From an uncultured Gammaproteobacteria bacterium (GTDB lineage: Bacteria; Patescibacteriota; Microgenomatia; Daviesbacterales; UBA10151): a DNA stretch of 64,000 bases. This document shows, in pieces, positions 33,738-53,838 of the stretch. The translations under genes and the position numbers were made by a program. Under the pieces are notes generated by a model. It was not told the DNA's origin, made no database searches, and saw only the letters and a program-made list of their open reading frames with translations. Numbering within the stretch: position 1 is the first letter of the stretch; every line of letters starts with the position of its first letter. The stretch covers positions 21,543-85,542 of the forward strand of contig CAYQAW010000004.1 in NCBI GenBank assembly GCA_964415615.1. Reading direction: 5' to 3'.

Positions 33738-34651
33738 TGAATAAAAATAATGTAGGCGTTAGTGTGGTAATACCAAGTTATAATTGCAAGAAAATATTAT
33801 TTAGGTTGCTGGATTCATATAAGAAGTCTTCATATAAAAACTTAGAGATTATAGTAGTTGATAACGGATCTAAAGATGCTAGTTTAGAAGAGGGGAAAAG
33901 AAAATATCCCCATATTAGATGGATAGATGCAGGGGAACACAATATCGGCCAGACTGGTTGTTACAACTTAGGGTTTGCCAGCGCGAAAAAGGGAAACCAT
34001 ATCTTATTTAATGATTCTGACGTTGTGGTTGAAAAAGATATGGTGAAGAGCCTGGTAAAAAGCCTTGATCAAAATAAGAAGATCGGTATTGTTACGCCGA
34101 TGATACTCTATTTATCAGATATAAATTGGGTTAACCAGGCAGGGTCATATGTTGATTTAACAACAGGTAAAGTTAATATAGGCTGGGGTCCGAAGAAAGA
34201 TTTTCTGGTTGGGAAAGAGGTGCAAAACTCCGGAACTTTGATGTTGTTTAGGAATAAAGTTTTGGAAAAGATTGGCGGTTTTGATAATTGGTTTATGTGC
34301 TATTTTGACCCAGATTATTGCCTGAGGGCTAAAAAAGCTGGTTTTATTACCTGGTATAATCCTGAAGCGGTTGCTTATCACGATCAGTCAAAAGACGAGC
34401 GAGTGTGGAGGCCAAGGGTTTTATCTAGAGCTTATTTACTTGGAAGGAATAGAGTGCTTTTTATGAGAAAACATGGCAATATAATCAGTTTTAGTTTATT
34501 CTTGCCCTTACTCTTAGGGTATTATCTGATTGAGGCTTTGCGTTTTAATAAAATGAAGAAATTCTTAGAATTAGTGTGGGGTACAATAGTGGGATATTTT
34601 TATCCAGTAAATAGAAATCTGTATATTCCCCTGCCGAGGTTAAGCAAATGA
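33737..34651 (+). CDS. Glycosyltransferase family 2
   Basis: 'VSVVIPSYNCKKILFRLLDS...EIIVVDNGSKD' and a DxD-type 'NDSDVVV'. Its ATG overlaps the upstream stop (ATGA). Confidence 0.7.
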   Translation: MNKNNVGVSVVIPSYNCKKILFRLLDSYKKSSYKNLEIIVVDNGSKDASLEEGKRKYPHIRWIDAGEHNIGQTGCYNLGFASAKKGNHILFNDSDVVVEKDMVKSLVKSLDQNKKIGIVTPMILYLSDINWVNQAGSYVDLTTGKVNIGWGPKKDFLVGKEVQNSGTLMLFRNKVLEKIGGFDNWFMCYFDPDYCLRAKKAGFITWYNPEAVAYHDQSKDERVWRPRVLSRAYLLGRNRVLFMRKHGNIISFSLFLPLLLGYYLIEALRFNKMKKFLELVWGTIVGYFYPVNRNLYIPLPRLSK

Positions 34652-35304
34652 AAATACTCGATCGCCTGAAGCTAACTTTACCGTTTTCTTATATGTGGTT
34701 ATTAAGAATTTCTATTGGAGATTGTAAAACAGTTTTAGACTTAGGTTGTGGTGATGGGTCGTTAATGGGCCTTCTTTCGCAAAACAATAAGTGGCAGATC
34801 ACGGGAGTTGATATTTATAAGCAATCAATTGAAAGAGCTAAGAGAAGTAATATTTATCATGAATTGTTCCAAGGTGATTTGCTCAAGACTATTAAAAACA
34901 ATAAATTAAAGCCTAGATATGATGTAGTATTCTTTTCCCAGGTAATAGAGCATATAACAAGAAGCCAGGGTGAACAGATCCTTGATGAAATTGAAACACT
35001 AGCAAGAAAAAGGATTGTCGTGGGAACTCCTCGTGGATTCATGGAGCAGCCACATGAGTTTTTGGATGGAAATCCTTATCAGGTCCACAAATCAGGATGG
35101 AGTATTGAGGACTTTAGTTCAAGAGGATATAAAGTTTATGGAGTGGGGTTTTGGCCGATTTGGTCTTATCATGGATTGGGGCGGAATGCTGGCATTTTTG
35201 GCAAGATTGTCTCTAACCTGATTTCCTATATGATGTCACCTGTTGTCTATTATTTTCCTCAACTGGCTGCAGGTGTTATTGCCATAAAAGAAAAGAGCAG
35301 GTAA
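34648..35304 (+). CDS. Class I SAM-dependent methyltransferase
   Basis: 'VLDLGCGDGSLM' and 'YDVVFFSQVIEHI'. Confidence 0.65.
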   Translation: MKILDRLKLTLPFSYMWLLRISIGDCKTVLDLGCGDGSLMGLLSQNNKWQITGVDIYKQSIERAKRSNIYHELFQGDLLKTIKNNKLKPRYDVVFFSQVIEHITRSQGEQILDEIETLARKRIVVGTPRGFMEQPHEFLDGNPYQVHKSGWSIEDFSSRGYKVYGVGFWPIWSYHGLGRNAGIFGKIVSNLISYMMSPVVYYFPQLAAGVIAIKEKSR

Positions 35305-35310
35305 AAATAA

Positions 35311-36363
35311 ATGCTTACAGGAAAGCTTCCTTTTATATCCATAGTTATTGCTAACTATAATGGTAGAGCGTATCTCCGTACGTGCCTAACTGCGCTTCTT
35401 AGATCTTCTATAACAAAATACGAGATTATAGTTATTGACAATAATTCCACTGATGAGAGTGCTGAGATTGTAAAGGAATTTATAGTTCGTGACCCAAGAA
35501 TTTCATTATTAAGAAATAAGGTTAATATAGGAGTGCCTGCCAGCAGAAACAGGGCTATTAAGAGTTGCAAGGGTGATATTGTTATCTTGTTAGATAATGA
35601 TACTCAAGTAAAGCCTGATTCCTTAAAACAGCTGATAGAGCCTTTATTAGAGGATAAAGAAGTGGGTGCAGCTCAAGCATTGTTAATCGATTTCGAGAAT
35701 AGAGATTTAATACAAATGGCCGGGGGCCATTTAATCCCTCAAGCTATTTGGTTGATGGGCTTTTACGAAAGAAGCAAGTTTAAAGAGGTAAGATCTGAGC
35801 TTGGACTCTCGAATATAATAGCAATATCAGCAGCGCTAGCTGTTAAAAAAGAGGTGTTGGATAAGATTGGCGGATATGATGCTTTGCTTTATAATTACAC
35901 TGACGACCTGGACCTTTCCTGGCGAATTTGGATTGCAGGTTATAGAGTAGTTCTTGCCAATAAAGCAATTGTATTTCATTACACAAAGTCAGTGGCAAGG
36001 CGTGCCAATATTGGTGCTAATAATTTTGATATTTACTTTCAACTTGCTAAAAACTCTTTTCGTTCAATGCTAAAAAACTATGAGATGACAAACGTGATCA
36101 GGTATTTGCCAATTAGTCTTTTTGTGAACTTATCCCGAGCGACTCTAGTGCTTGTGAAAAGAGGCGATTTTTCTGCTTTTTTGGCAACTCTTTATAGTAT
36201 ATGGTGGAGTTTTAAGAATTTACAGAATAGCTTACAAAGCCGTGCATTAACTCAAAAAACAAGGAAATTGAGTGATAAGCAAATAATGGAGGAAGTCTTT
36301 GTTAAGGGTGGATTAATAGATATTTATAATAGGAATTACAGAAGTTCTAAGCTTTTATGGTAA
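35311..36363 (+). CDS. Glycosyltransferase family 2
   Basis: 'ISIVIANYNGRAYLRTCLTALLRS...EIIVIDNNSTDES' and 'LLDNDTQV'. Confidence 0.7.
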   Translation: MLTGKLPFISIVIANYNGRAYLRTCLTALLRSSITKYEIIVIDNNSTDESAEIVKEFIVRDPRISLLRNKVNIGVPASRNRAIKSCKGDIVILLDNDTQVKPDSLKQLIEPLLEDKEVGAAQALLIDFENRDLIQMAGGHLIPQAIWLMGFYERSKFKEVRSELGLSNIIAISAALAVKKEVLDKIGGYDALLYNYTDDLDLSWRIWIAGYRVVLANKAIVFHYTKSVARRANIGANNFDIYFQLAKNSFRSMLKNYEMTNVIRYLPISLFVNLSRATLVLVKRGDFSAFLATLYSIWWSFKNLQNSLQSRALTQKTRKLSDKQIMEEVFVKGGLIDIYNRNYRSSKLLW

Positions 36364-39300
36364 AAAAAGCATACTCAATTACACTCCTTTTTCTGGTACT
36401 CTCGGCAATATTAATAATTTGCTGGTTTAGGTTTGGACTGATGTATGGTGGTGGTGATACTGGCCTACCGACATACAATCCGAAGGTCATGGCTGGTATT
36501 GCCAGTAATATTTGGTGGGATTCATTGGCACCTGGTATACCTGTAGCCCAGGGTTTAACTTCAGTCCCCATGCTTTTTCTTTTATCTATACCGCAAATTT
36601 TAGGGGCAGGTCCAGTTTTAATACAGGAATTGTTGTTTTTTAGCCTGCTTTTTTTAATGGGTTATGGCATGTATCTTTTGGCCTTAAGTATTTTTGGCAA
36701 ATCAAATTATTTGATGGCAATTGCTTCAGGAGTGTTTTATATGTTCAACCCTTATATGATGGTTCAAATTTGGCACCGGTTTATCCACAACTCAATGTTT
36801 TTTGTTTCATTTGTACCTTTTTTGGTCATGAGTTGGCTAAGGTGGATTAGAGAGCGTAAGCCTATATCATTGTTGGTTTTCCTGCTACTGAACTTTTTGG
36901 CTGTCTATATCTTTGGCACTATTGCTTTTATAGTTGGTTTTTGGCTATTCCTTTTTCTGCTGACTGTACTTGAGGGAGTAATACCATGGAAAGGGAAAAA
37001 GGCAATGATAGAGTTATCTTTGGCTTTTGTGATCGGACTAGTTTTTTGGCTTTTAACCAACAGCTGGTGGATTATTCCTACTTTCAATATCAGTCCAACT
37101 CTATTTGCTGAGCAGCATACAACCAATGATAGTTTGGCCACACTAATGGATCTTTCTGCACAAACAATCTTGCCATATACACTTCGTCTTATTAACCCTT
37201 TTTATTTATATTGGCATGCTGATTGGGGAGACATTTATCAAAATATCATTTTCTTATCAATTTCCTGGCTGTTTGTACTGGTAGTATTTATTGGTTTTTT
37301 AAAAGGTTTAAAACAGAGGCAATATGTCAAATGGAGTTTACTTTTTTTAATATTCATTATCTTAGGAAAAGGAGCAGCACCACCATTTGGTTTCCCCTAT
37401 ATTTGGGGTTTTTCCAACTTCTTTCCACTGGGGGTGATTAGGAATCCTTTTGAAAAACTGGGGATTTTACTGCCTTTAATTTATGCCATTCTTTTTGCTT
37501 ATGGCTTGAAGATCTTAATGTCTTATTTAAACAACCGTATTGGTAAAGGCAAGGCAAGCTTTATTTTGGTAGTTTTTATTATCTCAAATTTAGCTTTCTT
37601 GTGGCCTATGTTTGCTGGTAAGCTATTTGGTACTTTAGATAAACAAAACTTTGTGCAAGTACCACCAGATTATGGTTTGGCAGATAATTGGATTCGAAAA
37701 GATCTCGCTGGTACAAAAGAAGGTAGAATCTTGCACCTGCCACTCTCAAGGTCTGAAAGCATTACATATAATTGGCAGAATGGTTACAATGGAGTTGAGC
37801 CATCTGCTGCTTTATTTACCTCTCTTCCTTCTATAGCTAGGAATCTAGATATCCCCAAGGTTAGTGGTGCTATTTCTGCCCTATCTTTAATATTCCATAA
37901 ACCATATGCCAAAGACCCTGCAGTAATACTAAAGCTGTTACAGGATTTTAGTATCAAATATATTATCATACATAATGATGTAGATTGGTTAAAAAACGAA
38001 CTATCTAATCCTCGAGAGGTTGAAGAAGTTTTGGCAAAATTAGATTTCCTGGAAAAAGAAATTAGTTTTGGAAGCTTATCAATCTATAAAATAAAAGATC
38101 AATTTTTTCAGAGAGAAATAACTATTTCAGATAACTTGCAATTACTTTATAACACAGATGACAAAGTGTTTTGGCCTTGGATGGTAAGTACTCCATCAGC
38201 AGAGATGGTGAGTATATATAACGGCCAAGAGGGCAACATTTTAAATCAAGCCAATAAAATTATAGTTTTCCCAGATCGGCAAATATCAGTTAAGGATATA
38301 CAGGTGCCAAAGTTCAGGGGCAATTTAGATGACTTTGTTGCTGTTAGAGCTCTGCCAAATAACCCCTTATATTTTCTATTCCAAGCAAAAGAGTGGCTAA
38401 GCCTTATAGGTAAAAAACTTGATGAAGAGCAAAAAGATATTTTCGTTCTTGCTGAGAAAAGGTTGATTGAGATGTATAAGATTAAAAGAATGAGGGAAAT
38501 GGGAGCGATAAACCAAAAAGAAGGAAATGAAATTATTCTATCATTGATTAACAGATATCAAGACGTGTTAAACAAAATTTTCCAGTCTGAGGCTGGTTTT
38601 AATAACTTTTTGGTTGCAACTCCAAGATTTAGTACGACAGATACTTTCCTCAAGCACATTAGCCTGCTAAAGGAGCTGAGCGAGAGCACCACTGAACCAA
38701 GCGAAAAGAATATTGCTGAAGAAGCGATAGAGCTGATTAACAGAAACTTAATAAGGGCAAACTTCTTCCCTAAATACCCTCAGATATCTCAGCTAAGTGA
38801 AAATAAGTTAGATAAGAATTATGGCAGCGAGCTATATAGGTTCAACGTTCCTATAAAATCAAACTACGAAATCTTTATGACTAATCCCCAAGTTAGGAGC
38901 ATATATCCGAATGGTTTATCTCAAATTAATTTCCAAATAAACGACCATTACAAGAGTGTGCCGTTAAACGAGAAAAATGGAATGATTTATTTAGGGGAAG
39001 AGAAAATGAATGTAGATGAATATCAGACAGTGATGCCAAGATTGTCCTCTGTTAATTTGGCGCCCAGCATAAATGATTGGCAGACGTCAGGTGATGTGGT
39101 TGTTTCCGAGCAGGCAGGTACTATAGAGTTGTCGTCTGATAAGAAAAATTCTGCCTATATTGAAAGCGATATTAAACCTTTGTTTGGGCAGGATTTGTTT
39201 CTAGTTGCCTTTGATACAAAACTAGTATTAGGAAAAAGGATTAGGGTGCAGTTAACTCAGGATATAGATCCATTTGATAAACTCTTAAATAAAACAATAT

Positions 39301-39941
39301 ATCGTTATGATAATTATTTCACACCGGTCGATAAAGATGGATGGAATCAGTTTAGTGTAATGTTGGATTTACATTTTATCGCTCAAAAAGCCAAGCTAAA
39401 GATTCAGGTGGAACCTTGGGATGATTGTTTAGTGGTTTTAGCTGATAAGAAAAGTTGCGAAGATACGAAAAAAAGACAACAATATAATCGGCCTTCTAAA
39501 TTCTTGATCAAGAATATAAGTGTGGATAGAGTATTAAACAACGTCATCCTCCTTAGCAGTAATTTACCAGCAACTCCTTCTGCTGCTACTGCTGGCGATG
39601 TAGTACAGCGAAATAAACAAAATTCAAGTCTATATACGGGTAAAATAAGTATGAAACATCCAGGATTACTACTTTTTAAGCAATCGTTTAGCCCTGATTG
39701 GCAACTAAACCTTACCAAGGATAATAACATTTATCAGCCTACAGAGCATTTAATTGGGAACTTGTTCGCCAATGCTTGGTGGATAGATGAGGCAGGTGAC
39801 TATGATTTTACCTTAAGCTATCTTCCGCAAAAAAATATTCAGGCTGGTCTATTGTCTGCTGGACTGGGATGGGTTATATTAATCTTAATGTTAATGGTTA
39901 ATGAAAGGCATAAGTTGCGGAGGCTTGTAAAAATTAAGTGA
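36357..39941 (+). CDS. Giant polytopic membrane protein, putative GT-C glycosyltransferase (YfhO/AftD-like), paralogue 2
   Basis: 1194 aa. N-terminal membrane module with 'GGGDTGLPTYNPKV' and 'IRNPFEKLGILLPLIYAILFAYGL'. Residues ~10-566 are identical to 40289..43339. It has a unique ~630-aa C-terminal hydrophilic domain ending 'FSPDWQLNL...ANAWWIDEAGDYDFTLSYLPQ' plus a terminal TM. Confidence 0.6.
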   Translation: MVKKAYSITLLFLVLSAILIICWFRFGLMYGGGDTGLPTYNPKVMAGIASNIWWDSLAPGIPVAQGLTSVPMLFLLSIPQILGAGPVLIQELLFFSLLFLMGYGMYLLALSIFGKSNYLMAIASGVFYMFNPYMMVQIWHRFIHNSMFFVSFVPFLVMSWLRWIRERKPISLLVFLLLNFLAVYIFGTIAFIVGFWLFLFLLTVLEGVIPWKGKKAMIELSLAFVIGLVFWLLTNSWWIIPTFNISPTLFAEQHTTNDSLATLMDLSAQTILPYTLRLINPFYLYWHADWGDIYQNIIFLSISWLFVLVVFIGFLKGLKQRQYVKWSLLFLIFIILGKGAAPPFGFPYIWGFSNFFPLGVIRNPFEKLGILLPLIYAILFAYGLKILMSYLNNRIGKGKASFILVVFIISNLAFLWPMFAGKLFGTLDKQNFVQVPPDYGLADNWIRKDLAGTKEGRILHLPLSRSESITYNWQNGYNGVEPSAALFTSLPSIARNLDIPKVSGAISALSLIFHKPYAKDPAVILKLLQDFSIKYIIIHNDVDWLKNELSNPREVEEVLAKLDFLEKEISFGSLSIYKIKDQFFQREITISDNLQLLYNTDDKVFWPWMVSTPSAEMVSIYNGQEGNILNQANKIIVFPDRQISVKDIQVPKFRGNLDDFVAVRALPNNPLYFLFQAKEWLSLIGKKLDEEQKDIFVLAEKRLIEMYKIKRMREMGAINQKEGNEIILSLINRYQDVLNKIFQSEAGFNNFLVATPRFSTTDTFLKHISLLKELSESTTEPSEKNIAEEAIELINRNLIRANFFPKYPQISQLSENKLDKNYGSELYRFNVPIKSNYEIFMTNPQVRSIYPNGLSQINFQINDHYKSVPLNEKNGMIYLGEEKMNVDEYQTVMPRLSSVNLAPSINDWQTSGDVVVSEQAGTIELSSDKKNSAYIESDIKPLFGQDLFLVAFDTKLVLGKRIRVQLTQDIDPFDKLLNKTIYRYDNYFTPVDKDGWNQFSVMLDLHFIAQKAKLKIQVEPWDDCLVVLADKKSCEDTKKRQQYNRPSKFLIKNISVDRVLNNVILLSSNLPATPSAATAGDVVQRNKQNSSLYTGKISMKHPGLLLFKQSFSPDWQLNLTKDNNIYQPTEHLIGNLFANAWWIDEAGDYDFTLSYLPQKNIQAGLLSAGLGWVILILMLMVNERHKLRRLVKIK
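36384..38057 (+). repeat. 1674-bp direct repeat, copy A (identical to 40322..41995)
   Basis: Translations in three different frames and on both strands are identical between the copies, at a constant offset of 3938 bp (e.g. ORFs 36905..37141 and 40843..41079). Identity stops abruptly at 38058/41996. Confidence 0.8.
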
Positions 39942-40282
39942 AAAATAATATCTACTTATTATCCAGAATTACAATATTTTTTATTGTTTTACTGGGAGTA
40001 CTTTATATTTTGGAATATGGCTTTGTTTTTGATTCACCACATAAATTATTGAATGTCTTTCTGCTGGCTGGGCTTACTACAATAATATTTTTTAATTTAC
40101 GCCTCAGACGCTATGCTTTGATTCTTGCGATTGTTTGTTTGGCGATAATGGTTTTAACCTATATTCTATATATGCCCTACATGTTTTTACCGACTGGAGA
40201 TTTTGGTTTTAGTTTACTTATTATTACAATTGTTTCATATCTCCCTAAAATTATCAAAAAAGGTTATATCGAAAGATTTTAA
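39938..40282 (+). CDS. Small membrane protein (3 predicted TM), unknown
   Basis: 114-aa hydrophobic ORF between the two duplicated giant genes. Its start overlaps the upstream stop (ATGA-type). Confidence 0.4.
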   Translation: MKNNIYLLSRITIFFIVLLGVLYILEYGFVFDSPHKLLNVFLLAGLTTIIFFNLRLRRYALILAIVCLAIMVLTYILYMPYMFLPTGDFGFSLLIITIVSYLPKIIKKGYIERF

Positions 40283-40288
40283 TTTATA

Positions 40289-46192: not shown

Positions 46193-46200
46193 TAATTAAT

Positions 46201-47475
46201 ATGCTTAGATCTATTTTTAAAACCGCAACATTTAAGCAATCGCAAATCACAACGGTAGGGACTGTTCTAAATGGAGGACTGGGGGCTCTTTTTTATGTTT
46301 TGCTAGCCAGATTTATGGGGCCTGCTGAGTTTGGGTTGCTGACCATCTCCATAACTACATTAGTGCTTATAGCAGATATTGCGGATATAGGTACAAATAC
46401 AGGTTTGATTCGCTTTGTTTCCTTAAATATGGCGCAAAATAGAGAAAAGGGCTTAAAGTTTTTAAAATTAAGTTTAGAAATAAAGCTAGTAGCATGGCTT
46501 TTAGCGTTTATAACCATCTTTCTATTGTCTCCATTTTTGGCAAATCAAATTTTCCATAAGCCTGAGCTAATTTGGCCACTTAGGCTTGTGGGGTTTGGTG
46601 TGGGAGGAGCATTGCTTTTTAGTTTTGTTACCTCTAGCTTGCAGGCGTTCCAGAGGTATTTTATGTGGAGTATGGTAAATATTGTCACTAACGCTTTACG
46701 TCTGGTTTTGGTTTTTGTTTTGGGCTATTACCTGCTGATCAATGTTGAAAGTGTTTTATTTGTGTATGTTCTCTTACCTTTTTTTGGGTTTTTTTTGACA
46801 CTTTTTATTCTGCCAAGCAGGGATGTATTTAGAGCAAAAGATGAATTCAATTTACTTCAGGAACTTCTAAAGTATAATATGTCGGTAGCTCTTTTTTCGA
46901 TTTTTGCCGCATTTTCCGCTAGATTAGATACTTTTCTAAATGCAGCTTTGCTTTCCAGCAGAGAAGTGGGTATTTATGGAGCGGCGAATCAGTTGGTTCA
47001 AATTATGCCTCAACTAGTGTCAGCCTTGGGATTAGTTTCAGCTCCCAAATTTGCCTCCTTTCAAAAAAATAATCAAATGCTGGTTTACTTTAAAAAGTTT
47101 CAGCTTTTTGTCTTAGGGCTGTGTTTGGTTGGGCTTTTAACCATTCCTATTTCAGCTTATCTGATTCCAATGCTTTTTGGTTCATCTTACCGTGAGGCGG
47201 TAACACCCTTTGTATATTTATTTTTAGGGCAGCTAATTTTTCTTTTCTCAATACCAGTGCATCATAGTATCATCTTTTATTTCGGTAGGCCAGATATTTT
47301 TATCTGGGTGGCTTTAGGGAATCTTGCGATAATTGGTGGTTTAGGATATTGGATGATTTCAAATTTTGGGATTATAGGTGCTGCTGTTACCGTACTTGTG
47401 GGCATGCTTTTTAATTTTGTATGTCCTTTAATTTGGTTATTTATTAAATTACGGAAATCAGGAGATAAAACATGA
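46201..47475 (+). CDS. Polysaccharide/O-unit flippase, MOP superfamily (Wzx-like)
   Basis: 424 aa with about 12 TM. The N-terminus 'VLNGGLGALFYVLLARFMGPAEFGLLTISITTLVLIADIADIGTNTGLIRF' is typical of the Polysacc_synt/Wzx family. Confidence 0.7.
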   Translation: MLRSIFKTATFKQSQITTVGTVLNGGLGALFYVLLARFMGPAEFGLLTISITTLVLIADIADIGTNTGLIRFVSLNMAQNREKGLKFLKLSLEIKLVAWLLAFITIFLLSPFLANQIFHKPELIWPLRLVGFGVGGALLFSFVTSSLQAFQRYFMWSMVNIVTNALRLVLVFVLGYYLLINVESVLFVYVLLPFFGFFLTLFILPSRDVFRAKDEFNLLQELLKYNMSVALFSIFAAFSARLDTFLNAALLSSREVGIYGAANQLVQIMPQLVSALGLVSAPKFASFQKNNQMLVYFKKFQLFVLGLCLVGLLTIPISAYLIPMLFGSSYREAVTPFVYLFLGQLIFLFSIPVHHSIIFYFGRPDIFIWVALGNLAIIGGLGYWMISNFGIIGAAVTVLVGMLFNFVCPLIWLFIKLRKSGDKT

Positions 47476-48269
47476 AAATCTGGGCTAATACAATTGTGCA
47501 TAATGAGGAAAATTTTATTTGGTTTGCTATCATGAGTGTTATAGATTATGTAGATAAAATTTTAGTTTGGGATACAGGCTCGACTGATCAAACAGTCGAA
47601 ATTATTAAAGAGATAATTAAGAAAAAGGGTGATAAGATTGAGTTTAAGGAGGTTGGTCTTACTGATAAATACGAATTTACTAAAATGCGCCAGGCTATGC
47701 TTGAGCAATCAAAGTGTGATTGGATCTTAGTTTTAGATGGAGATGAGATTTGGTGGGAAGATTCAATTAAACAACTAGCTAAAGAAATCAATAGCAAGGG
47801 AAAGAGTATTGAGGGGATAGTAGTGCCAATGGTTGTGCCGGTTGGAGATATTTATCATTTCCAAGAAGAGTTAGCTGGTAGGTATAAGTTATTAGGGAAA
47901 ATGGGTCATTATAACCTGAGGGTCATCAACAGGAATATTCCTGGTTTACATGTAGCTTTTCCATATGGGAGAGAAGGTTATTTTGATATTGATGGAAATG
48001 AGGTTCAAAAAAGAAAGAAGATAATTTTTTCTGATACGCCTTATCTTCATCTTACTCACTTGGTGAGATCAAAAAAGAAAAGAATAAACAATAAGCATAA
48101 ATTAGAGTTAGGGAAAAGCTGTTCTAATGATTTTAAATATCCAGGTGTTTTGTTAGCCTCTTGCCCTGCAATTGTTCCTAATCCTTGGAGAAAAATATCT
48201 AGAGCGGATTTGATAATTGCTAAAATGATGACTCCGTTTAGAATAGTTAAAAGAAAGATTTTATTTTAA
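47472..48269 (+). CDS. Glycosyltransferase family 2-like
   Basis: 'IVHNEENFIWFAIMSVIDYVDKILVWDTGSTDQT' and 'DWILVLDGDEIWWE' (DxD). Confidence 0.6.
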   Translation: MKIWANTIVHNEENFIWFAIMSVIDYVDKILVWDTGSTDQTVEIIKEIIKKKGDKIEFKEVGLTDKYEFTKMRQAMLEQSKCDWILVLDGDEIWWEDSIKQLAKEINSKGKSIEGIVVPMVVPVGDIYHFQEELAGRYKLLGKMGHYNLRVINRNIPGLHVAFPYGREGYFDIDGNEVQKRKKIIFSDTPYLHLTHLVRSKKKRINNKHKLELGKSCSNDFKYPGVLLASCPAIVPNPWRKISRADLIIAKMMTPFRIVKRKILF

Positions 48270-48413: not shown

Positions 48414-49952
48414 GTGAAAACAAGTTTTTTATACACTAAAGCTGAGTTTTTTTTGCTGTTTATCTTTGTTTCCCTTTCCGTTATAAAAATTGACAAGCCA
48501 GGTGTGAATACTGATCAATTACTTTTTGTAAATGCTGCTATTGGGCCGCTGGATTCCAGTTATATATATAAAGCAATACATGGAATTCCCGTGTTAATAA
48601 TGATTTATATAGGAGCACTGAAGGCCTATCTTTTCAAGCCAATCTTTTACTTATTCGGTGTTTCTATTTACTCAATTAGATTACCGATAATTGTAATTAT
48701 GACTTTTTCTTTATACCTATTGCATAAATGTATTTCCTTAGTAGACAAAAAAATAGCAATATTTACATTGATAATTCTAGCAACAGATCCAAGTTTTATT
48801 GCTTTTTCCAGAATAGATTACGGGCCGGTTGTTTTAGAATTCTTTTTTAAGGTAATCTCTTTACTTTTTTTTTATTACCTCGTTAATACAAAAAAACAAA
48901 AATATCTACTTCTTTTGTTAGCTTCGTTAGCATTGGGGCTATTTAACAAAACCAATTTTATTTGGTTTATTAATAGTTTATTATTTGCTACAGTTTTTAT
49001 CTTTAGACATGAAATTTTAGAAAAGAAGAGATTTATCTCTAGTAAACAAATATTAATAATATTTGTTTCGTATATATCATTTTTGTTTTATGGATTTTGG
49101 ATTTATAGAAAAGCTACAGTAGAGTATTCTGCAGAAGCTATCTCACTGTCTTTTTCTAAAATCTTAAACAATACTTCTATAGTCACTACTAATTTTATTA
49201 ATCTTATAAATGGTGAATCTCTTTTTAGACTAATTTACAATAAACCGCTACATGAATTTGCTACGTATTATTCGTACGTACTTATCTTGATTGTTATTCT
49301 TGGGGTTTTCTATATTATCAAAAATAGAAAACAGATTAATAATAAATTTACAAGATTTAATCTCTTTATTCTGATGCTTACTATATGTGTGTTTGTTCAG
49401 CTGTCTTTAACCTCAATTGCATTTTCGGCTTGGCATACATATTCTATTTATCCTTTTTTCGCAATACTTATTGCAATATCTTTAACTAGGATAAGGTTTT
49501 CCTATTTATTAGTAAGTGCCATAGTGCTATATAATTTGTTTTCATATTATAAATATATAAGTTATTACGATAAGCCGGTAAGCGACCTTAAATGGAGTAG
49601 TCAATTTTATGAACTTGTTAAGTTCACAGATTCTTTTTCTGGATTAGTATTGTCTACGGATGTTGGCATTCAAGCTAACTTTCTGGCTTTTTCAAATAAT
49701 TACAGTAAGTATACGCCTATAGAATGGATGGTTGATATACAATCCTATGAATCATATAAAAGTGTTCTGCAGGGATATTTTAAAAAGGATAGTAATATCT
49801 TAGTGGTTGTTCCCAATAACGAAAGCGTTATTTTTAAAGGAATACAACCTTATTTTGTCAGATTTATTAAGGACTACAGAATAAATTTAATAAAAATTAG
49901 AGAATTTAAGGATGGAGATAAAATTGCCTATACTGTTTATAAAGTAAAATAA
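48414..49952 (+). CDS. Polytopic membrane protein, possible GT-C (GT39/ArnT-like) glycosyltransferase
   Basis: 512 aa with a GTG start. Many TM helices. Related in architecture to 53814 and 57622. Assignment weak. Confidence 0.5.
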   Translation: MKTSFLYTKAEFFLLFIFVSLSVIKIDKPGVNTDQLLFVNAAIGPLDSSYIYKAIHGIPVLIMIYIGALKAYLFKPIFYLFGVSIYSIRLPIIVIMTFSLYLLHKCISLVDKKIAIFTLIILATDPSFIAFSRIDYGPVVLEFFFKVISLLFFYYLVNTKKQKYLLLLLASLALGLFNKTNFIWFINSLLFATVFIFRHEILEKKRFISSKQILIIFVSYISFLFYGFWIYRKATVEYSAEAISLSFSKILNNTSIVTTNFINLINGESLFRLIYNKPLHEFATYYSYVLILIVILGVFYIIKNRKQINNKFTRFNLFILMLTICVFVQLSLTSIAFSAWHTYSIYPFFAILIAISLTRIRFSYLLVSAIVLYNLFSYYKYISYYDKPVSDLKWSSQFYELVKFTDSFSGLVLSTDVGIQANFLAFSNNYSKYTPIEWMVDIQSYESYKSVLQGYFKKDSNILVVVPNNESVIFKGIQPYFVRFIKDYRINLIKIREFKDGDKIAYTVYKVK

Positions 49953-49959
49953 ACGTAAA

Positions 49960-50661
49960 ATGAAAAATTCTAATTTTTATACTGGTACAAAGACTTTAGA
50001 AAGTATGAATGGAGCAAAATTTTATAATAGGTGGATCTTAAATAAATTTAAACATTTTTTAAAAGGAGATATTCTTGAAGTTGGTTGTGGGATAGGGAAT
50101 TTTTCTTCTGAATTATCCAAACACGGAAAAGTAACTGCTATTGATATAGATGTAGTTTTGATAAAAGAAATTAAAAATGAAAAAGAGTTTCAAATAGATG
50201 CTGGGTGGGGAGACATAGAAAAGGGTAAATATTTTTTTCAAGGAAAAACTTTTGATACAATTGTATGTTTAAATGTTTTGGAGCATATTAATCAAGATGT
50301 GCAAGCTTTAGAAAATATATTGAAGCTTATTAAAAAAGGAGGTAACTTGATTATCATAGTTCCGATTTATCAATTCTTATATGGAGAAATAGACAAAAAT
50401 ATTGGTCATTATCGGCGATATAACCCGCAGAGTATTATAAATCAGATTAAGAGTTTAGGATTGGAAATCATTTTATATAGAAAATTAAATTTCCTAGGTG
50501 CTATTGGATGGTTTTGTGCAGGCAGAGTTCTTAAAGATAAACATGTTGAGGCAGATAGGTTGTACTTATTTAATATTTTAGCACCGTTTTTTCTGGCCAT
50601 GGAAGATTTGATAGAACCACCAGTAGGTACTTCTATTATGATTATTGCGGAGAAGAAATAG
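49960..50661 (+). CDS. Class I SAM-dependent methyltransferase
   Basis: 'ILEVGCGIGNFSSEL' and 'DTIVCLNVLEHI'. Confidence 0.65.
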   Translation: MKNSNFYTGTKTLESMNGAKFYNRWILNKFKHFLKGDILEVGCGIGNFSSELSKHGKVTAIDIDVVLIKEIKNEKEFQIDAGWGDIEKGKYFFQGKTFDTIVCLNVLEHINQDVQALENILKLIKKGGNLIIIVPIYQFLYGEIDKNIGHYRRYNPQSIINQIKSLGLEIILYRKLNFLGAIGWFCAGRVLKDKHVEADRLYLFNILAPFFLAMEDLIEPPVGTSIMIIAEKK

Positions 50662-51381
50662 ATGAAACTTTCAATAATAATTCCTGTTTATGATGAAGAA
50701 AAAACAATAATGCAAATGATAAATAAAGTGAGCAAGATTAAACTGCAAGGCGCTATAAAAAAAGAGATTATAGTAGTGGATGATGGGTCGACCGATAACA
50801 CCGCAAAGGCATTATCAAAATTTAAAATTAAAAATAGCGGACAATTTAAATCTCTAAGACATGAAAAAAATAAAGGTAAAGGTGCAGCAATTAGAACGGG
50901 CATAAAAAATTCATCGGGTGATTTCATAATAATTCAGGATGCGGATTTAGAATATGATCCAGATGATTATTCAAAGCTTTTAGAGAAGATTATTAAAAGA
51001 GACGCTTTAGTGGTATATGGTTCGAGGTTGATGAATTATCCATTAAACTTATGGGGAAAAGATAAAACGGTTTTACCAACCCATTTAATAGCTAATAAGT
51101 TTTTGACATTCCTAACAAATCTTTTATTTCAAAGTCATTTAACAGACATGGAGACAGGGTATAAACTTTTTAATAGAAAGATTTTAGAAGATTTAAATTT
51201 AAAATCCAATAATTTTGATTTTGAAGCTGAAATAACTGCTAAAATATTAAAGCATAAAATTTCTATTTATGAAGTCCCTATTGTAACTTGCCCTAGAACA
51301 TATCAAGAAGGTAAGAAGATTGGATGGAAAGATGGACTTACGGCAATTTGGACATTACTTAAGTTTCGCTTTGTTGAATGA
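50662..51381 (+). CDS. Polyprenyl-phosphate glycosyltransferase (GT2; DPM1/CsbB/GtrB/ArnC-like)
   Basis: '[14 protein letters not shown]', '[13 protein letters not shown]', '[11 protein letters not shown]' and '[12 protein letters not shown]' are collinear with dolichyl/undecaprenyl-phosphate sugar synthases. Confidence 0.8.
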
Positions 51382-51385
51382 TTTT

Positions 51386-52330
51386 ATGAAAGTATTATTT
51401 TTAAGCAGATACCAGAATAGTGTGGAAAGAGGCGCAGAGGTTTTTGTCAGTGAGCTTACTCAAAGATTAGCAGTAAATCATACTGTAGAGATTTTTTCCG
51501 ATAAAAAAGCAGATTCCTTAAAAGATGTATTAACAGCGAAGGCTGATGTAGTTATCCCTATAAATGGAAGGATACAAAGTTTAAAAGTTTCTTTAGGTAG
51601 ATTTATTGGAAGATATAAAATATTAATTTCAGGTCATAGCGGTAAAGGTTGGGATGATATTTGGAATATAGCAATTGTCAAACCAGATGTATTTGTGGCA
51701 TTAACAGATGAGATGAGCAATTGGGTAAAGAGATGGGCTTGGGGAAATAAGGTAGTTAAGATCCCAAACGGCGTGGATTTAAATAAATTTTCACCCAAAG
51801 GAGAAAAGATTGAACTTAACTTGAAAAAACCGATTATTTTATCGGTTGGAGCCTTGGCTTGGTATAAGCATCATGAATTGGAAATAAAGGCGGTAAGTAA
51901 ATTGAATGTAGGTTCACTACTGATAGTTGGAAAGGGGGAAGGGAAACCTGTCTTGGAAAGTTTGGGGAGACAGTTATTGGGTGATAGATTTAAAATAATG
52001 GATTTCTCCTATCAGGATATGCCTAAAGTCTACAGGTCTTGTGAAATTTTCACGCTGCCTTCCTGGAATAGGGAAGCTTTTGGAATTGCATATATTGAGG
52101 CGCTTGCTTCTGGTCTCGGAGTGATCGCTCCAGACGACCTACAGAGAAAAGAGATAATCGGTGGAGGGGGATTGTTTACTGATGTTAACGACTCGGTTCG
52201 ATATGCAGAAACAATAAAAAGAGCTTTAGAAATTGATTGGTCACAAAAAGCCAGGACGCAATCTGAAAAGTTTTCTTGGGAAAAGATCGCTTTGGAATAT
52301 GAAAAATTGATTTTGGATATGGTAGGATAA
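51386..52330 (+). CDS. Glycosyltransferase family 4
   Basis: 'EAFGIAYIEALASGLGVIAPD'. Start set at ATG 51386 (MKVLFLSRYQN). Confidence 0.65.
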   Translation: MKVLFLSRYQNSVERGAEVFVSELTQRLAVNHTVEIFSDKKADSLKDVLTAKADVVIPINGRIQSLKVSLGRFIGRYKILISGHSGKGWDDIWNIAIVKPDVFVALTDEMSNWVKRWAWGNKVVKIPNGVDLNKFSPKGEKIELNLKKPIILSVGALAWYKHHELEIKAVSKLNVGSLLIVGKGEGKPVLESLGRQLLGDRFKIMDFSYQDMPKVYRSCEIFTLPSWNREAFGIAYIEALASGLGVIAPDDLQRKEIIGGGGLFTDVNDSVRYAETIKRALEIDWSQKARTQSEKFSWEKIALEYEKLILDMVG

Positions 52331-52331
52331 A

Positions 52332-53105
52332 TTGATTATGAAATTGGATCTAACTTCCTTTTATGAAAGCTCGGAAAGGCTGGAGTATCATCCCAGCTCT
52401 TTGATGATGAAAAAGAGGACTGGAATTAAAAGATTGATTGCTTTTGATGATAGGTTTGAAAGAGTAAAAAAAGAATTAGAAAAACTGATTACACAAAATG
52501 CAAACCTGCCTGTAAAAATATTAGATATTGGGATAGGGGACGGAGTATATGAGTTTAGTTTGAATGAAGAGATTAAGGCAAAATGTGAGTTTTTCGGAGT
52601 TGATATAAGCGAAAAACAGATGGCAAGAGTACGTAAGTTATTAAAAGAATCAAAAGTAGTAGATCTAAACTTGCAGAAATTACCATATCAGGCTAATAGT
52701 TTTGATATTGTTATTGTATCTGAGATTTTAGAACATGTTTTCTATCCAGAAAAAATACTTCAGGAAGCGCAAAGAGTCTTAAAGATAAATGGATTTATCA
52801 TTTTAACCTTTCCTAACTCTTCCTGTTTGCAGCTCAGACTGGGATTGCTATTTAAGGGTAGCTCACCGCTCTTAAATTACCCGGAAAATAAGGAACATAT
52901 CAGGTTTTTCTCAAGCTCTAATATTCAAAGCTTGCTAGATAATAGTGTCAAGCTTGTAAATAAAATAGGGGTAGGATCTTTTCTTTTTGACAAATGGAAT
53001 TTTATTTCCAAAATTCCTATGCCAAGACTAATACAGGTTGTGGGGAATAAATTTTTTCCTTCTTTGGCTTTAGGAAACATACTTATTTTACAGAAAAATG
53101 ATTAG
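52332..53105 (+). CDS. Class I SAM-dependent methyltransferase
   Basis: 'ILDIGIGDGVYE' and 'FDIVIVSEILEHV'. Confidence 0.6.
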   Translation: MIMKLDLTSFYESSERLEYHPSSLMMKKRTGIKRLIAFDDRFERVKKELEKLITQNANLPVKILDIGIGDGVYEFSLNEEIKAKCEFFGVDISEKQMARVRKLLKESKVVDLNLQKLPYQANSFDIVIVSEILEHVFYPEKILQEAQRVLKINGFIILTFPNSSCLQLRLGLLFKGSSPLLNYPENKEHIRFFSSSNIQSLLDNSVKLVNKIGVGSFLFDKWNFISKIPMPRLIQVVGNKFFPSLALGNILILQKND

Positions 53106-53838
53106 CGCAACAATTATCACATTAAATGAACAGGAAAAAATTGGCAAAGCTCTTGGAAGTCTAAAGGGTCTTGCTCAGGAAGTGATAGTGGTAGATTCGG
53201 GTAGCGATGACAGCACCTTAAGTATTTGTAAAGATTTTAAGGTGCAGATCTTTATACGCAAATTCGACAATTTCGCAAATCAAAAAAATTATGCGTTATC
53301 AAAAACAAAAGGGGATTGGATTATCTCTTTGGATGCTGATGAGGAAATATCACCTGCTTTAGCAAATGAGATTCGAGAGGCGATTAAAAGCAGTGAATAT
53401 GCAGCGTATTTAATCCCAAGGAGAAATTTTATTCTAGGCGCGGAAATAAAATATTCGAGGTGGAGTCCAGACAGGCATATCTGGTTATGGAAGAAGAATA
53501 GCGGTAAATGGGTAGGAGGCGTTCATGAGGAGGTGGTTGTCAGTGGTAAAATAGGTAAGCTTGTACATAGCAAGATACATAATTCGCATAAAACATTAAA
53601 TGAATTTATCGAGACGAATAATCTATACTCTTCTTTAGAAGCAGAAAATTGGATAAAAAATAACAAAAAATTTTCTGCCTGGAATATGTTTTCAGATGCG
53701 CTACTTGAGTTTTTCTTAAGATTTTTATATAAAAAGGGATTTTTGGATGGAAGCAAGGGGTTTGCGCTTGCATATATGATGGGAATTTATAAATTAACAG
53801 TCTGGATTAAACTTTGGGAGCTGGAGAGAAGAAAATGA
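53098..53838 (+). CDS. Glycosyltransferase family 2
   Basis: 'ISATIITLNEQEKIGKALGSL...EVIVVDSGSDDST' and 'ISLDADEEI' (DxD). Confidence 0.7.
   Translation: MISATIITLNEQEKIGKALGSLKGLAQEVIVVDSGSDDSTLSICKDFKVQIFIRKFDNFANQKNYALSKTKGDWIISLDADEEISPALANEIREAIKSSEYAAYLIPRRNFILGAEIKYSRWSPDRHIWLWKKNSGKWVGGVHEEVVVSGKIGKLVHSKIHNSHKTLNEFIETNNLYSSLEAENWIKNNKKFSAWNMFSDALLEFFLRFLYKKGFLDGSKGFALAYMMGIYKLTVWIKLWELERRK

Follow-up and report, generated by a model that had tools for sequence, protein, structure and literature searches.

Three methyltransferase–GT2 gene pairs in a putative envelope-glycan locus of a Daviesbacteria-like bacterium

Gene content of the locus

The window, i.e. the whole 64,000-nucleotide stretch of DNA that was analysed, contains a ~40 kb locus whose core is the region studied here. 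We consider it reasonably probable that this is an envelope-glycan biosynthesis locus, and that its host is a Daviesbacteria-like (CPR/Patescibacteria) bacterium. Besides sugar-nucleotide genes and enzymes of the GT4 and GT2 families, the locus encodes a Wzx flippase, a Wzy_C protein and at least six unambiguous GT-C membrane transferases, two of them AftD-like and four of PMT_2 type, together with further GT-C-like polytopic membrane proteins; the genes annotated between 23 and 63 kb of the window include no ABC transporter. Five methyltransferases are present: four mutually distant class I SAM-dependent enzymes, small proteins of 216-257 aa that exceed the gathering scores of class I Pfam families, and one sugar C-methyltransferase. 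The plus-strand operon comprises 24 genes, including five GT2 and three methyltransferase (MT) genes, and its intergenic gaps range from -62 to +9 nt with two exceptions. The features discussed are:

23650..24930, minus: gene of NDP-sugar C-methyltransferase type, fifth methyltransferase in the locus (Methyltransf_13 and Methyltransf_14, 147 bits)
29271..29921, minus: MT0, fourth class I SAM-methyltransferase (Methyltransf_11, 75 bits)
32547..33737, plus: GT4 glycosyltransferase opening the operon (Pfam Glycos_transf_1, 85.8 bits)
33737..34651, plus: GT2a, 304-aa GT2 with one C-terminal hydrophobic segment (PF00535, 80 bits)
34648..35304, plus: MT1, class I SAM-dependent methyltransferase, 218 aa (Methyltransf_25/31/12/23/11 above cutoffs)
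35311..36363, plus: GT2b, 350-aa GT2 of Glyco_tranf_2_3 type (PF00535, 115 bits)
36357..39941, plus: AftD-like GT-C paralogue 1, 1194 aa, about 11 TM (by likeness to the PF11847-matching paralogue)
39938..40282, plus: 114-aa protein with four hydrophobic segments (TM count), between the two AftD-like genes
40289..43339, plus: AftD-like GT-C paralogue 2, 1016 aa (PF11847 GT-C_AftD, 30.9 bits vs cutoff 26)
43487..46192, plus: 901-aa polytopic membrane protein, remotely AftD-like, nine hydrophobic segments
46201..47475, plus: Wzx-type flippase (Polysacc_synt, 78 bits)
47472..48269, plus: GT2c, 265-aa GT2 of Glyco_tranf_2_4 type (PF00535, 57 bits)
48414..49952, plus: PMT_2-family GT-C, 512 aa, about 10 TM (PF13231, 42 bits)
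49960..50661, plus: MT2, class I SAM-methyltransferase, 233 aa, of a distinct many-phyla family (Pfam)
50662..51381, plus: GT2d, 239-aa soluble GT2 of polyprenyl-phosphate sugar synthase type (DPM synthase/ArnC/GtrB-like)
51320..52330, plus: GT4 glycosyltransferase between pairs 2 and 3 (Glycos_transf_1, 77.8 bits)
52332..53105, plus: MT3, class I SAM-methyltransferase, 255-257 aa, lineage-restricted accessory gene (Pfam)
53098..53838, plus: GT2e, 246-aa GT2 of Glyco_tranf_2_4 type (PF00535, 66 bits)
53814..55253, plus: PMT_2-family GT-C after pair 3 (PF13231, 53 bits)
55228..56586, plus: second PMT_2-like polytopic membrane protein, 7 TM (PF13231, 24.2 bits, just under the cutoff of 26.1)
61390..62808, plus: membrane protein of Wzy_C type (O-antigen ligase/polymerase-like), close to the end of the operon (PF04932, 35.6 bits vs cutoff 31.7; 10 TM)

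Gene callers place the start of the second GT4 at 51332 rather than 51320, and that of MT3 at 52338 (255 aa).

The two AftD-like paralogues are 93% identical over 625 aa, and a 1.75 kb DNA repeat is common to their genes. The 114-aa protein between them, for which no Pfam match was found even at E<=5, has orthologues in ORFs of 110-117 aa in the related loci L086, L089 and L092; the same three loci keep the first GT4 upstream of GT2a, and L086 also has the NDP-sugar C-methyltransferase-type gene. The 901-aa protein, likewise without a Pfam match, shares 23-26% identity with each AftD-like paralogue across stretches of about 240-370 aa.

A threefold order of unrelated pairs

An earlier note on this DNA had reported a small methyltransferase followed by a GT2 three times in one operon. 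All six ORFs are found at the positions it gave, and Pfam confirms a class I SAM-methyltransferase followed by a PF00535 (Glycos_transf_2) protein in each case. Within-operon permutation gives P=0.005 for a GT2 directly after all three methyltransferases, and P=0.047 if GT2 adjacency on either side counts. MT0 is indeed alone on the other strand at 29271..29921, with an epimerase/dehydratase gene on one side, an 805-aa 13-TM protein on the other, and no adjoining GT2. The overlapping or near-abutting pair boundaries are also present, but the same tightness is seen operon-wide, so that it is uninformative about the pairs specifically. A GT-C gene, which had been placed after each pair, follows pairs 1 and 3 only; pair 2 is followed by the second GT4, while its PMT_2 GT-C stands directly upstream of MT2.

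The order, its permutation P value of 0.005 and the GT-C genes after pairs 1 and 3 would fit a single "make-and-methylate" module of methyltransferase and GT2, duplicated three times with each copy feeding the GT-C after it, as the earlier note had proposed. Pairwise alignment argues otherwise. The motifs read as a sign of kinship among the methyltransferases correspond to motif I and the post-motif II/III region, which are generic to class I enzymes; the four enzymes are 21-30% identical over the SAM core, while the GT2s are 23-36% identical over partial lengths only, i.e. at superfamily level. Neither set is closer mutually than the superfamily background, and there is no congruent pairing. 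Moreover, the operon carries five GT2 genes and not three, and the three partners differ in type (Glyco_tranf_2_3 for GT2b, DPM-synthase/ArnC/GtrB for GT2d, Glyco_tranf_2_4 for GT2e). The methyltransferase families also diverge in size and taxonomic spread, with more than 900 members for MT2, 278 for MT1 and 69 for MT3. The GT4 after pair 2 and the fusion proteins that couple MT1 to an upstream GT2a-type enzyme (see below) are further points against a repeated module, which the pairwise comparisons had already largely refuted and which we regard as improbable.

A different possibility is that the genes adjoin simply because the operon is packed and rich in GT2 genes, while the methyltransferases serve unrelated steps or modify substrates other than glycans, for example quinones, rRNA or proteins. 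With five GT2 genes among 24, chance adjacency is non-negligible (hence the P value of 0.047), junctions are tight everywhere in the operon, and there are weak NCBIfam matches to UbiG, UbiE, BioC and rRNA methyltransferases. These matches are, however, far under their cutoffs (e.g. UbiG 54.8 vs 102.95). The earlier note had held that a lack of conserved GT2 adjacency in relatives would speak against coupling; instead, relatives keep the adjacency for all three pairs, to a depth that varies among them, and this conservation, together with the gene fusions and, for MT2, the enrichment over control methyltransferases described below, contradicts the by-product explanation, to which we give very little credence. 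We lean towards the view that the threefold order represents three different, independently conserved couples rather than one module repeated.

Conservation of pairs 1 and 3

A GT2 gene adjoins MT1 on each side, with the end of GT2a overlapping the MT1 start by 4 nt. The MT1 family has 278 members, mainly in Daviesbacteria, and the block GT4-GT2a-MT1-GT2 is kept in three lineages (L086, L089, L092) at 54-72% identity. In L089 and L092, GT2a-like and MT1-like domains are fused into a single GT2::MTase protein that is 34-36% identical to GT2a vs 27-29% to GT2b; GT2b itself reaches none of the NCBIfam equivalog cutoffs. Because of this fusion in relatives, the true partner of MT1 is likely, judging by sequence, the upstream GT2a, and not GT2b as the earlier note had paired it. 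We thus favour, with some confidence, a GT2a-MT1(-GT2b) block at the level of Daviesbacteria.

All MT3 orthologues with at least 51% identity (5/5) lie in the order GT4-MT3-GT2e-PMT_2. GT2e has orthologues in L093, L095 and L096 (52-68% identity), and the GT2e-PMT_2 order is conserved in relatives. In 11 related loci, however, no MT3 separates GT4 from GT2e, and the two most distant homologues of MT3 (48-49%) have no adjoining GT2; both observations count against our best explanation. On balance, we see MT3-GT2e-PMT_2 as an accessory insertion found in some lineages only.

MT2 and GT2d

Within MT2's family, 236 representative clusters are obtained at E<=1e-30. SAM motif I is invariant, as are NVLEH, GHxRRY, N177, W184 and G223/S225, and the AF2 model (pLDDT 79) has an intact Rossmann methyltransferase fold. 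A fold search returned generic class I methyltransferases only (TM 0.57-0.67), which counts against our best explanation; the matches mix sugar O-methyltransferases (RebM, AtmM) with BioC and prenyl-diphosphate C-methyltransferases, so that the fold does not demonstrate a sugar substrate.

The best solved relatives of GT2d are Pyrococcus DPMS (5mlz, E 7e-17, residues 1-218), ArnC and GtrB, with which its DADLxxxP motif aligns. Two further observations weigh against our reading: the top NCBIfam matches (AglJ, PgfS, PpgS, ArnC) are all below cutoff, and GT2d has 0 TM segments and no anchoring domain. As GT2d is the only one of the five operon GT2s with polyprenyl-phosphate sugar synthases as top matches, both in NCBIfam and among solved structures, the earlier suggestion that the partner GT2s feed extracytoplasmic transferases is plausible for GT2d alone.

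GT2d lies immediately 3' of MT2 in 10/10 syntenic Daviesbacteria-like loci. In other phyla it adjoins MT2 in 28/63 loci and lies at most three genes away in 35/63, including loci of Gemmatimonadota, Thermodesulfobacteriota, Curtissbacteria and archaea. A GT2 is found directly 3' of the methyltransferase in 22/56 distant MT2 loci vs 2/63 for control class I methyltransferases (Fisher P=5e-7), an enrichment of about 12-fold. Fusions occur in 15 of the best 150 MT2-family representatives; eight are full-length GT2d-type::MT2 proteins, in both domain orders, and there is one each with a GT2c-type enzyme (P0389), a GT87 GT-C (P0383) and a B12-radical SAM protein. GT2c has no methyltransferase before it here; in many relatives one (MTx) follows it, with the order GT2c-MTx-MT2 in L004, L006, L010, L013, L016, L179 and L180.

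Large polytopic proteins are found at most three genes from MT2 in 45/73 loci, and the GT-C-type neighbours of MT2-GT2d in other phyla include YfhO, PMT_2 and DUF2079 proteins. In Gemmatimonadota, profile comparison of the three ~500-aa membrane proteins after the pair with PMT_2 proteins gave no significant match. Beside MT2-GT2d, loci of other phyla yielded no GtrA-like small flippase (4 of about 60). Both results weigh against our explanation, as does the lack of a family match for the 114-aa protein of the window.

Of the couplings that the earlier note had put forward, the one between MT2 and GT2d is thus strongly backed by cross-phylum adjacency and repeated fusions, while that of pair 1 probably involves a different partner. 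Gene content, gene families, conservation of adjacency and the fusions are established here. With the same moderate confidence as above, we take MT2-GT2d to be an ancient couple spread over many phyla.

The two enzymes might nevertheless be co-regulated without a common substrate: MT2 could methylate a sugar of the Und-PP-linked repeat unit or of the completed polymer precursor, while GT2d gives the GT-C enzymes an unmethylated polyprenyl-phosphate sugar. AglP and WsaE are precedents for glycan methyltransferases acting on lipid-linked oligosaccharides or polymer termini, many other glycosyltransferases of the operon could supply the acceptor, and about 40% of distant MT2 homologues have no GT2d within three genes, which also counts against our own explanation. 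Recurrent full-length fusions in both domain orders and the GT87 fusion speak against separate substrates. In addition, there are self-contained contexts, such as those of Gemmatimonadota and Thermodesulfobacteriota, with only GT2d and polytopic membrane proteins as glycosylation genes around MT2, so that the neighbourhood encodes no further cytoplasmic lipid-linked glycan. We therefore consider separate substrates a rather unlikely but serious alternative to MT2 and GT2d working on one donor.

Comparison with known systems

AglP is a SAM-dependent methyltransferase of Haloferax volcanii N-glycosylation, where the glycan is assembled on dolichol phosphate, and its product is the methyl ester of a hexuronic acid inside the oligosaccharide, a precedent for methyl transfer to lipid-linked glycans (PMC3871713). 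We liken AglP to the methyltransferases here by its pathway role: as with MT2-GT2d, a SAM-methyltransferase is combined with a GT2, AglJ, the first glycosyltransferase of the pathway. AglJ is the best NCBIfam match of GT2d, yet at 107 bits vs a cutoff of 325.

WsaE, from S-layer glycan synthesis in Geobacillus stearothermophilus, is a methyltransferase and GT2 fusion (PMC2943079). In WsaE and in E. coli O8/O9a WbdD, the methyltransferase domain is physically coupled to GT2-type domains and methylates the sugar added by the coupled glycosyltransferase, a precedent for the fusions in relatives; the genes in the window are separate. WsaE and WbdD terminate chains by capping their non-reducing end, in ABC-transporter-dependent pathways, whereas this locus has Wzx and Wzy_C.

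NodC/NodS and MftF/MftM each combine a GT2 with a small class I methyltransferase that works on the same saccharide; NodS and MftM act on the oligosaccharide product of the partner GT2. MT2 matches NodS and MftM, and GT2a and GT2b match MftF, all weakly in Pfam/NCBIfam and far under the family cutoffs, and, unlike in those systems, nothing around these genes is tied to nodulation or mycofactocin.

Three-component systems (GtrA/GtrB/Gtr*, ArnC/ArnT with ArnD, CsbB/YfhO and the pentofuranose systems) likewise have a GT2 polyprenyl-phosphate sugar synthase beside GT-C transferases. Differences are that GT2d has no counterpart of the C-terminal membrane domain that GtrB, ArnC and archaeal DPMS carry, and that no GtrA-like flippase was identified here. 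Known donor-remodelling auxiliaries of such systems include a deformylase and a deacetylase. In the pentofuranose systems, auxiliary epimerases remodel the lipid-linked (polyprenyl-P-sugar) donor before use (Kelly et al. 2024, PMC11127046). The conserved auxiliary partner here is, in contrast, a SAM methyltransferase, for which we found no description in the literature as a partner in a three-component system.

A possible methylated sugar donor

We suggest, from sequence comparison, that the probable role of MT2 and GT2d is to produce or alter a polyprenyl-phosphate sugar donor that is methylated. In the mechanism that we propose, soluble GT2d would charge polyprenyl phosphate with a sugar, and MT2 would methylate, at the cytoplasmic face, either this lipid-linked sugar or the product formed directly from it; the methylated donor would then be flipped and used by neighbouring GT-C enzymes. 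MT3 may provide an extra methylation step beside the GT2e-type transferase in some lineages only. That the methyltransferases would methylate sugars, which sugar or intermediate each would take, and in which order the steps would run, we infer. Taken as a whole, an envelope-glycan locus with three distinct methyltransferase-GT2 couples, of which MT2-GT2d would supply a methylated donor, is the explanation that we favour, with moderate confidence. If it is true, MT2 would be an auxiliary donor-remodelling enzyme in a glycosylation system of the three-component type.

Layout of the envelope-glycan locus

The region is a large envelope-glycan locus, in which MT0-MT3 denote small class I SAM-methyltransferases (MTases) and GT2a-GT2e the five family 2 glycosyltransferases of a plus-strand operon. 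This operon (32.5-62.8 kb) opens with GT4, GT2a, MT1, GT2b, an AftD-like polytopic membrane glycosyltransferase (GT-C) of 1194 aa and a 114-aa protein with four transmembrane (TM) segments; these are followed by a second AftD-like GT-C (1016 aa), a 901-aa polytopic protein, Wzx, GT2c, PMT_2, MT2, GT2d and GT4, then by MT3, GT2e, PMT_2, a PMT_2-like protein, GT4, PMT_2 and GT4, and the operon ends with a hexapeptide acyltransferase, a 182-aa protein and a Wzy_C protein. Between 23.6 and 32.4 kb, the minus strand carries a sugar C-methyltransferase (Methyltransf_13/14), a UDP-glucose dehydrogenase, two epimerase/dehydratases, a nucleotidyltransferase, MT0 and an 805-aa 13-TM protein. The genes of main concern here, with Pfam assignments above gathering score for the four MTases and for GT2b, GT2d and GT2e, are:

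29271..29921, minus strand: MT0, class I SAM-MTase
33737..34651, plus strand: GT2a, family 2 glycosyltransferase, uncounted in the earlier note
34648..35304, plus strand: MT1, class I SAM-MTase
35311..36363, plus strand: GT2b, Glycos_transf_2
47472..48269, plus strand: GT2c, family 2 glycosyltransferase, uncounted in the earlier note
48414..49952: PMT_2, the GT-C nearest to MT2-GT2d, on its upstream side
49960..50661, plus strand: MT2, class I SAM-MTase
50662..51381, plus strand: GT2d, Glycos_transf_2
51320..52330: GT4, directly after MT2-GT2d
52332..53105, plus strand: MT3, class I SAM-MTase
53098..53838, plus strand: GT2e, Glycos_transf_2

The window's proteins are also present on Logan contigs from SRR4343428 and on one NCBI contig, and the closest homologues of MT1, MT2 and MT3 (55-82% identity) come from metagenome-assembled genomes of Candidatus Daviesbacteria and other Patescibacteria; the assignment to Daviesbacteria is based on what homologues at 55-78% identity are called. 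Outside the flagged region there are four more glycosylation genes, namely a weak PMT_2-like protein (17623..19149, plus strand), a sixth GT2 (19142..19876, minus strand), a STELLO-like glycosyltransferase (22651..23637, plus strand) and the 805-aa, 13-TM protein, which has a faint TMEM260-like match (29990..32407, minus strand); the glycan locus thus reaches well upstream of 34.6 kb. The Methyltransf_13/Methyltransf_14 protein (23650..24930, minus strand) is of the NDP-hexose C-methyltransferase type, stands first in the sugar-nucleotide operon and is kept in an independent Daviesbacteria genome (locus L086); the glycan may therefore contain a C-methyl branched sugar as well.

A direct repeat of 1.75 kb (36357..38100 and 40289..42030, spacing 3938 nt) is common to the two AftD-like genes; its copies agree to 98.6% over the whole length and to 100% over about 1.65 kb. 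The repeat encodes the N-terminal polytopic GT-C domain, in which the two proteins share 93% of their amino acids over 625 aa; identity between their C-terminal domains is only 28%. In L086 the two paralogues are mutually 100% identical over 900 nt, yet only about 74% identical to those of the window, which indicates gene conversion and not an assembly artefact; in L092 the paralogues are only 67% identical. The pattern resembles that of continuing gene conversion in the catalytic domain, next to extracytoplasmic domains that have diverged. Between the two genes lies the 114-aa protein with its four hydrophobic segments (39938..40282, plus strand), which has orthologues of 110-117 aa in L086, L089 and L092 and is a candidate for either a small flippase or an accessory subunit of a GT-C.

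The three pairs are not copies of one module

The earlier note had proposed a single module, an MTase followed by a GT2, reiterated three times and followed each time by a GT-C. All the open reading frames it named were found where it had placed them, and the MTase-then-GT2 order does occur three times on the plus strand (MT1-GT2b, MT2-GT2d and MT3-GT2e), each assignment exceeding its Pfam gathering score. When the 24 operon genes (five GT2, three MTase) were shuffled, a GT2 came directly after each of the three MTases with P=0.005, and MTase-GT2 adjacency on either side had P=0.047. A GT-C does follow the first pair (AftD-like) and the third (PMT_2), but the second is followed by a GT4. The junctions within the pairs overlap or abut as described, but such junctions are the rule across the whole operon and are not specific to the pairs.

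Duplication of a module did not survive pairwise BLASTP comparison, in which the MTases are 21-30% identical in the SAM-binding core only and the GT2s 23-36%. Most GT2 pairs align over only 47-116 residues of the N-terminal nucleotide-binding part, GT2a and GT2b being the only two that align over about 290 residues. The motifs taken as a sign of kinship among the MTases turned out to be only the generic class I motif I and the acidic/hydrophobic motif that follows it. Other genomes contain a separate family of orthologues for each MTase, at 50-80% identity, and these families differ greatly in size (MT2 has more than 900 homologues, MT1 278 and MT3 69) and in taxonomic spread. The GT2 partners differ in subtype too: GT2b is a 350-aa protein of the Glyco_tranf_2_3 type, and GT2e, like GT2c, is of the Glyco_tranf_2_4 type. 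On these grounds (low identities over partial lengths, separate MTase families, differing GT2 subtypes) we rejected a tandem paralogous MTase-GT2 module. The adjacency itself is kept in relatives for all three pairs, to differing depth, as gene-neighbourhood comparison showed.

MT1 lies between two GT2s, overlapping GT2a by 4 nt and preceding GT2b, so that the operon has five GT2 genes in total. The block GT4-GT2a-MT1-GT2, followed by a membrane protein of ~1000-1170 aa and a protein of ~115 aa, is kept in three Daviesbacteria lineages (MT1 identity 72%, 57% and 54%). In the two more distant of these lineages a GT2::MTase fusion of 519-534 aa stands directly after MT1, at the position of GT2b (L089 6653..8212; L092 6657..8261). 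Its N-terminal domain is 34-36% identical to GT2a versus 27-29% to GT2b, and its C-terminal domain is MT1-like across the full length (29-33%). The fusion of a GT2a-type to an MT1-type domain, GT2 first, suggests that MT1 works with the upstream GT2a and not with GT2b; in effect, the fusion is a second GT2a-MT1 pair, duplicated in tandem, whose two members have since joined.

For the third pair, all five MT3 orthologues of at least 51% identity sit exactly between a GT4 and a GT2e orthologue, with PMT_2 next (L093, L095, a JGI contig, L179 and L180), while homologues at 48-49% identity are directly followed by PMT_2 or lie in an unrelated context. A metagenome scan with the MT3 alignment gave no MT3 orthologues among the matches listed, only remote generic MTases (≤40% identity). 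Eleven related loci have GT4-GT2e-PMT_2 without an MTase in between, and MT3 is thus an accessory insertion. Many relatives carry an extra MTase (MTx) between GT2c and MT2, 33-36% identical to MT0 or MT3; the order in L179 and L180 is GT2c-MTx-MT2-GT2d-GT4-MT3-GT2e. We rejected MTx as a displaced MT3 orthologue, given this low identity and its coexistence with a true MT3 in L093, L179 and L180.

Methyltransferase family membership

MT0, MT1, MT2 and MT3 each exceed the cutoffs of several Pfam models of the Methyltransf_11/12/23/25/31 group, and the glycine-rich motif I (E/DxGxGxG) is legible in all four and invariant across the MT2 family. None of MT1, MT2 and MT3 reaches an NCBIfam equivalog cutoff. 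A role as a quinone, biotin or rRNA methyltransferase (UbiE, UbiG, BioC, RlmA) was rejected, since the best match, to UbiG, scores 54.8 against a cutoff of 102.95, the rest fall further below, and the operon context also speaks against it. The AF2 model of MT2 (pLDDT 79) has a seven-stranded Rossmann-like class I MTase fold, with a lower-confidence helical hairpin at residues 178-215 that bears the family-invariant N177, G180 and W184. All top Foldseek matches of this model are class I MTases, mixing the sugar O-methyltransferases RebM and AtmM with BioC and prenyl-diphosphate C-methyltransferases; such fold matches to a predicted structure do not discriminate the substrate of MT2 among class I types.

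MT2 and GT2d are coupled across phyla

We collected 80 MT2 loci by scanning one genome per GTDB species with the MT2 alignment, called their open reading frames and classified these by phmmer against the window's proteins. In 10/10 syntenic Daviesbacteria-like loci, MT2 is immediately followed by a GT2d-type gene. In other lineages it adjoins MT2 in 28 of 63 loci and is at most three genes away in 35; these 63 include Curtissbacteria, Woesebacteria-level CPR, Gemmatimonadota, Thermodesulfobacteriota, Acidobacteriota, Planctomycetota and DPANN archaea, at 30-47% identity. As a control we took 80 loci around generic class I MTases (≤40% identity, among the matches listed in the metagenome scan with the MT3 alignment). 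A GT2 is directly downstream of 22/56 distant MT2 homologues versus 2/63 control MTases (Fisher P=5e-7).

An exhaustive profile search placed 236 representative clusters in the MT2 family at E≤1e-30, and 15 of the best 150 representatives are long fusion proteins. Eight of these join a full-length GT2d-type domain (38-51% identical to GT2d) to an MT2-type domain, in both orders (for example P0313 with the MTase first and P0439 with the GT2 first); by Pfam and BLASTP, others are one GT2c-type::MT2, one GT87::MT2, one B12-radical-SAM::MT2 and two MTase::MTase. The GT87 partner, fused in P0383 (721 aa), is a polyprenyl-P-mannose-dependent GT-C type. Large polytopic proteins occur within three genes of MT2 in 45/73 loci, and the membrane-protein neighbours of the pair in other phyla are YfhO, PMT_2 and DUF2079. 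In bacteria and archaea alike, genes of a specific class I MTase family thus go together with, and are often fused to, those of a soluble DPM-synthase-like GT2, usually with a GT-C nearby.

Some loci have additional partners. The fusion to a B12-binding radical SAM enzyme is P0419 (701 aa), an archaeal locus has a B12-radical-SAM gene between GT2d and MT2 (L021, 6844..8932), and radical SAM homologues occur in eight MT2 loci, which points to a second methylation, of the radical kind, alongside the couple in some cases.

In at least 13 Gemmatimonadota loci (L083, 2154..15929; also, for example, L040-L044, L063, L080 and L084), pilS/pilR-like genes lie immediately upstream of MT2-GT2d and pilB and pilC further upstream; the regulators are a PilS-like kinase and a sigma-54 PilR-like protein, among type IV pilus genes. 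There the couple is followed by three ~500-aa proteins with 7-9 TM segments and no known family. In two Thermodesulfobacteriota genomes (L023, L032) it follows a YfhO-type membrane protein (~830-850 aa), and of the pil genes only pilB is nearby. Profile-profile comparison of the three ~500-aa proteins and YfhO with the window's PMT_2 profiles gave no significant match (probability <10%). The position of the couple beside pil genes hints at pilin or pilus-associated glycosylation.

GT2d resembles lipid-phosphate-sugar synthases

All five GT2s score 57-125 bits against PF00535 (cutoff 23.3), with DSD, DND, DGD, DAD and DAD motifs legible in their sequences. Only for GT2d (239 aa) are polyprenyl-phosphate sugar synthases the top matches in NCBIfam and among solved structures. 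Its nearest solved relatives are the Pyrococcus dolichol-P-mannose synthase 5mlz (E 7e-17, residues 1-218), then ArnC and GtrB, and its DADLxxxP catalytic motif aligns with that of solved polyprenyl-P glycosyltransferases. Its top NCBIfam matches are AglJ, PgfS, PpgS and ArnC, all below the equivalog cutoffs (AglJ 106.8 vs 325, PpgS 72.5 vs 370, ArnC 64.7 vs 529), as is DPhHxTase. GT2d has no C-terminal TM or interface anchor helices, with 0 hydrophobic segments in 239 aa. Soluble, catalytic-only polyprenyl-P sugar synthases do exist, such as human DPM1 and Ppm1 of M. smegmatis, so the lack of an anchor is still compatible with synthase activity.

As for the other parts of a three-component system, GT2d is encoded together with GT-C enzymes, one PMT_2 gene being directly upstream of MT2-GT2d and more PMT_2 genes downstream. 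A GtrA-like small flippase was not recognised: even at E≤5 Pfam gives no match for the 114-aa 4-TM protein, and small multi-TM reading frames occur near MT2 in only 4 of ~60 other loci, with no consistent one among them. Wzx is present in the operon.

A possible role for MT2

The most economical reading of the locus is that the MTases would methylate sugars of the glycan assembled here, each with its adjacent GT2. For MT2 we tentatively hold it possible, judging by protein families, adjacency and fusions, that the substrate is the polyprenyl-P-sugar made by GT2d, before flipping. GT2d would make this lipid-linked sugar at the cytoplasmic face of the membrane, MT2 would methylate it on the same side ahead of flipping, and the flipped, methylated donor would then be used by GT-C enzymes. 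The main rival, which we consider unlikely, is that MT2 methylates a lipid-linked oligosaccharide, as AglP does (PMC3871713), or a chain terminus, as WsaE does (PMC2943079). In several phyla GT2d and polytopic membrane proteins are the only glycosylation genes around MT2, and these sparse contexts, the synthase-type matches of GT2d and the fusions of MT2 to GT2d-type and GT-C domains together favour action on the polyprenyl-P-sugar. Besides epimerases, ArnD and NaxD are donor-remodelling enzymes of this kind. If MT2 does act on the polyprenyl-P-sugar it would, by analogy, be an auxiliary donor-remodelling enzyme like the epimerases of three-component systems (PMC11127046).

A wider proposal, which we regard as rather doubtful, is that MT2 and GT2d, with their fusions in many phyla, form an undescribed two-enzyme unit making a methylated polyprenyl-P monosaccharide that PMT_2, YfhO or GT87 enzymes use to decorate envelope polymers or proteins with O-methyl sugars. 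Under this proposal the methylated monosaccharide would be a new class of lipid-linked donor, and the target in Gemmatimonadota and Thermodesulfobacteriota may be type IV pilins.

Relation to known systems and significance

MTases in polysaccharide clusters, MTase-GT2 fusions (WsaE) and three-component systems of GT2 and GT-C are already known. The first of these being routine, the finding as first stated is mostly ordinary CPR envelope-glycan annotation. The WsaE and WbdD terminators, in which an MTase is combined with polymerising glycosyltransferases, belong to the ABC-transporter (Wzm/Wzt) pathway; the window differs in having Wzx and Wzy_C, and no ABC transporter is among the genes annotated at 23-63 kb. 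In the literature, which we covered incompletely, we came across no account of a class I MTase family coupled to a soluble, DPM-synthase-like or DPM1-like GT2, of methylated polyprenyl-P-monosaccharide donors or of CPR glycan methylation; given that coverage, this is weak evidence of novelty.

The part of the finding worth keeping is the MT2-GT2d couple, whose natural fusions offer simple single-polypeptide targets for biochemistry. If the MTase acts on a lipid-linked monosaccharide, methylation would join epimerisation, deformylation and deacetylation as a donor-remodelling step of three-component glycosylation, and the couple would, if this is true, serve as a marker by which methylated surface glycans could be recognised from the genomes of uncultivated lineages.
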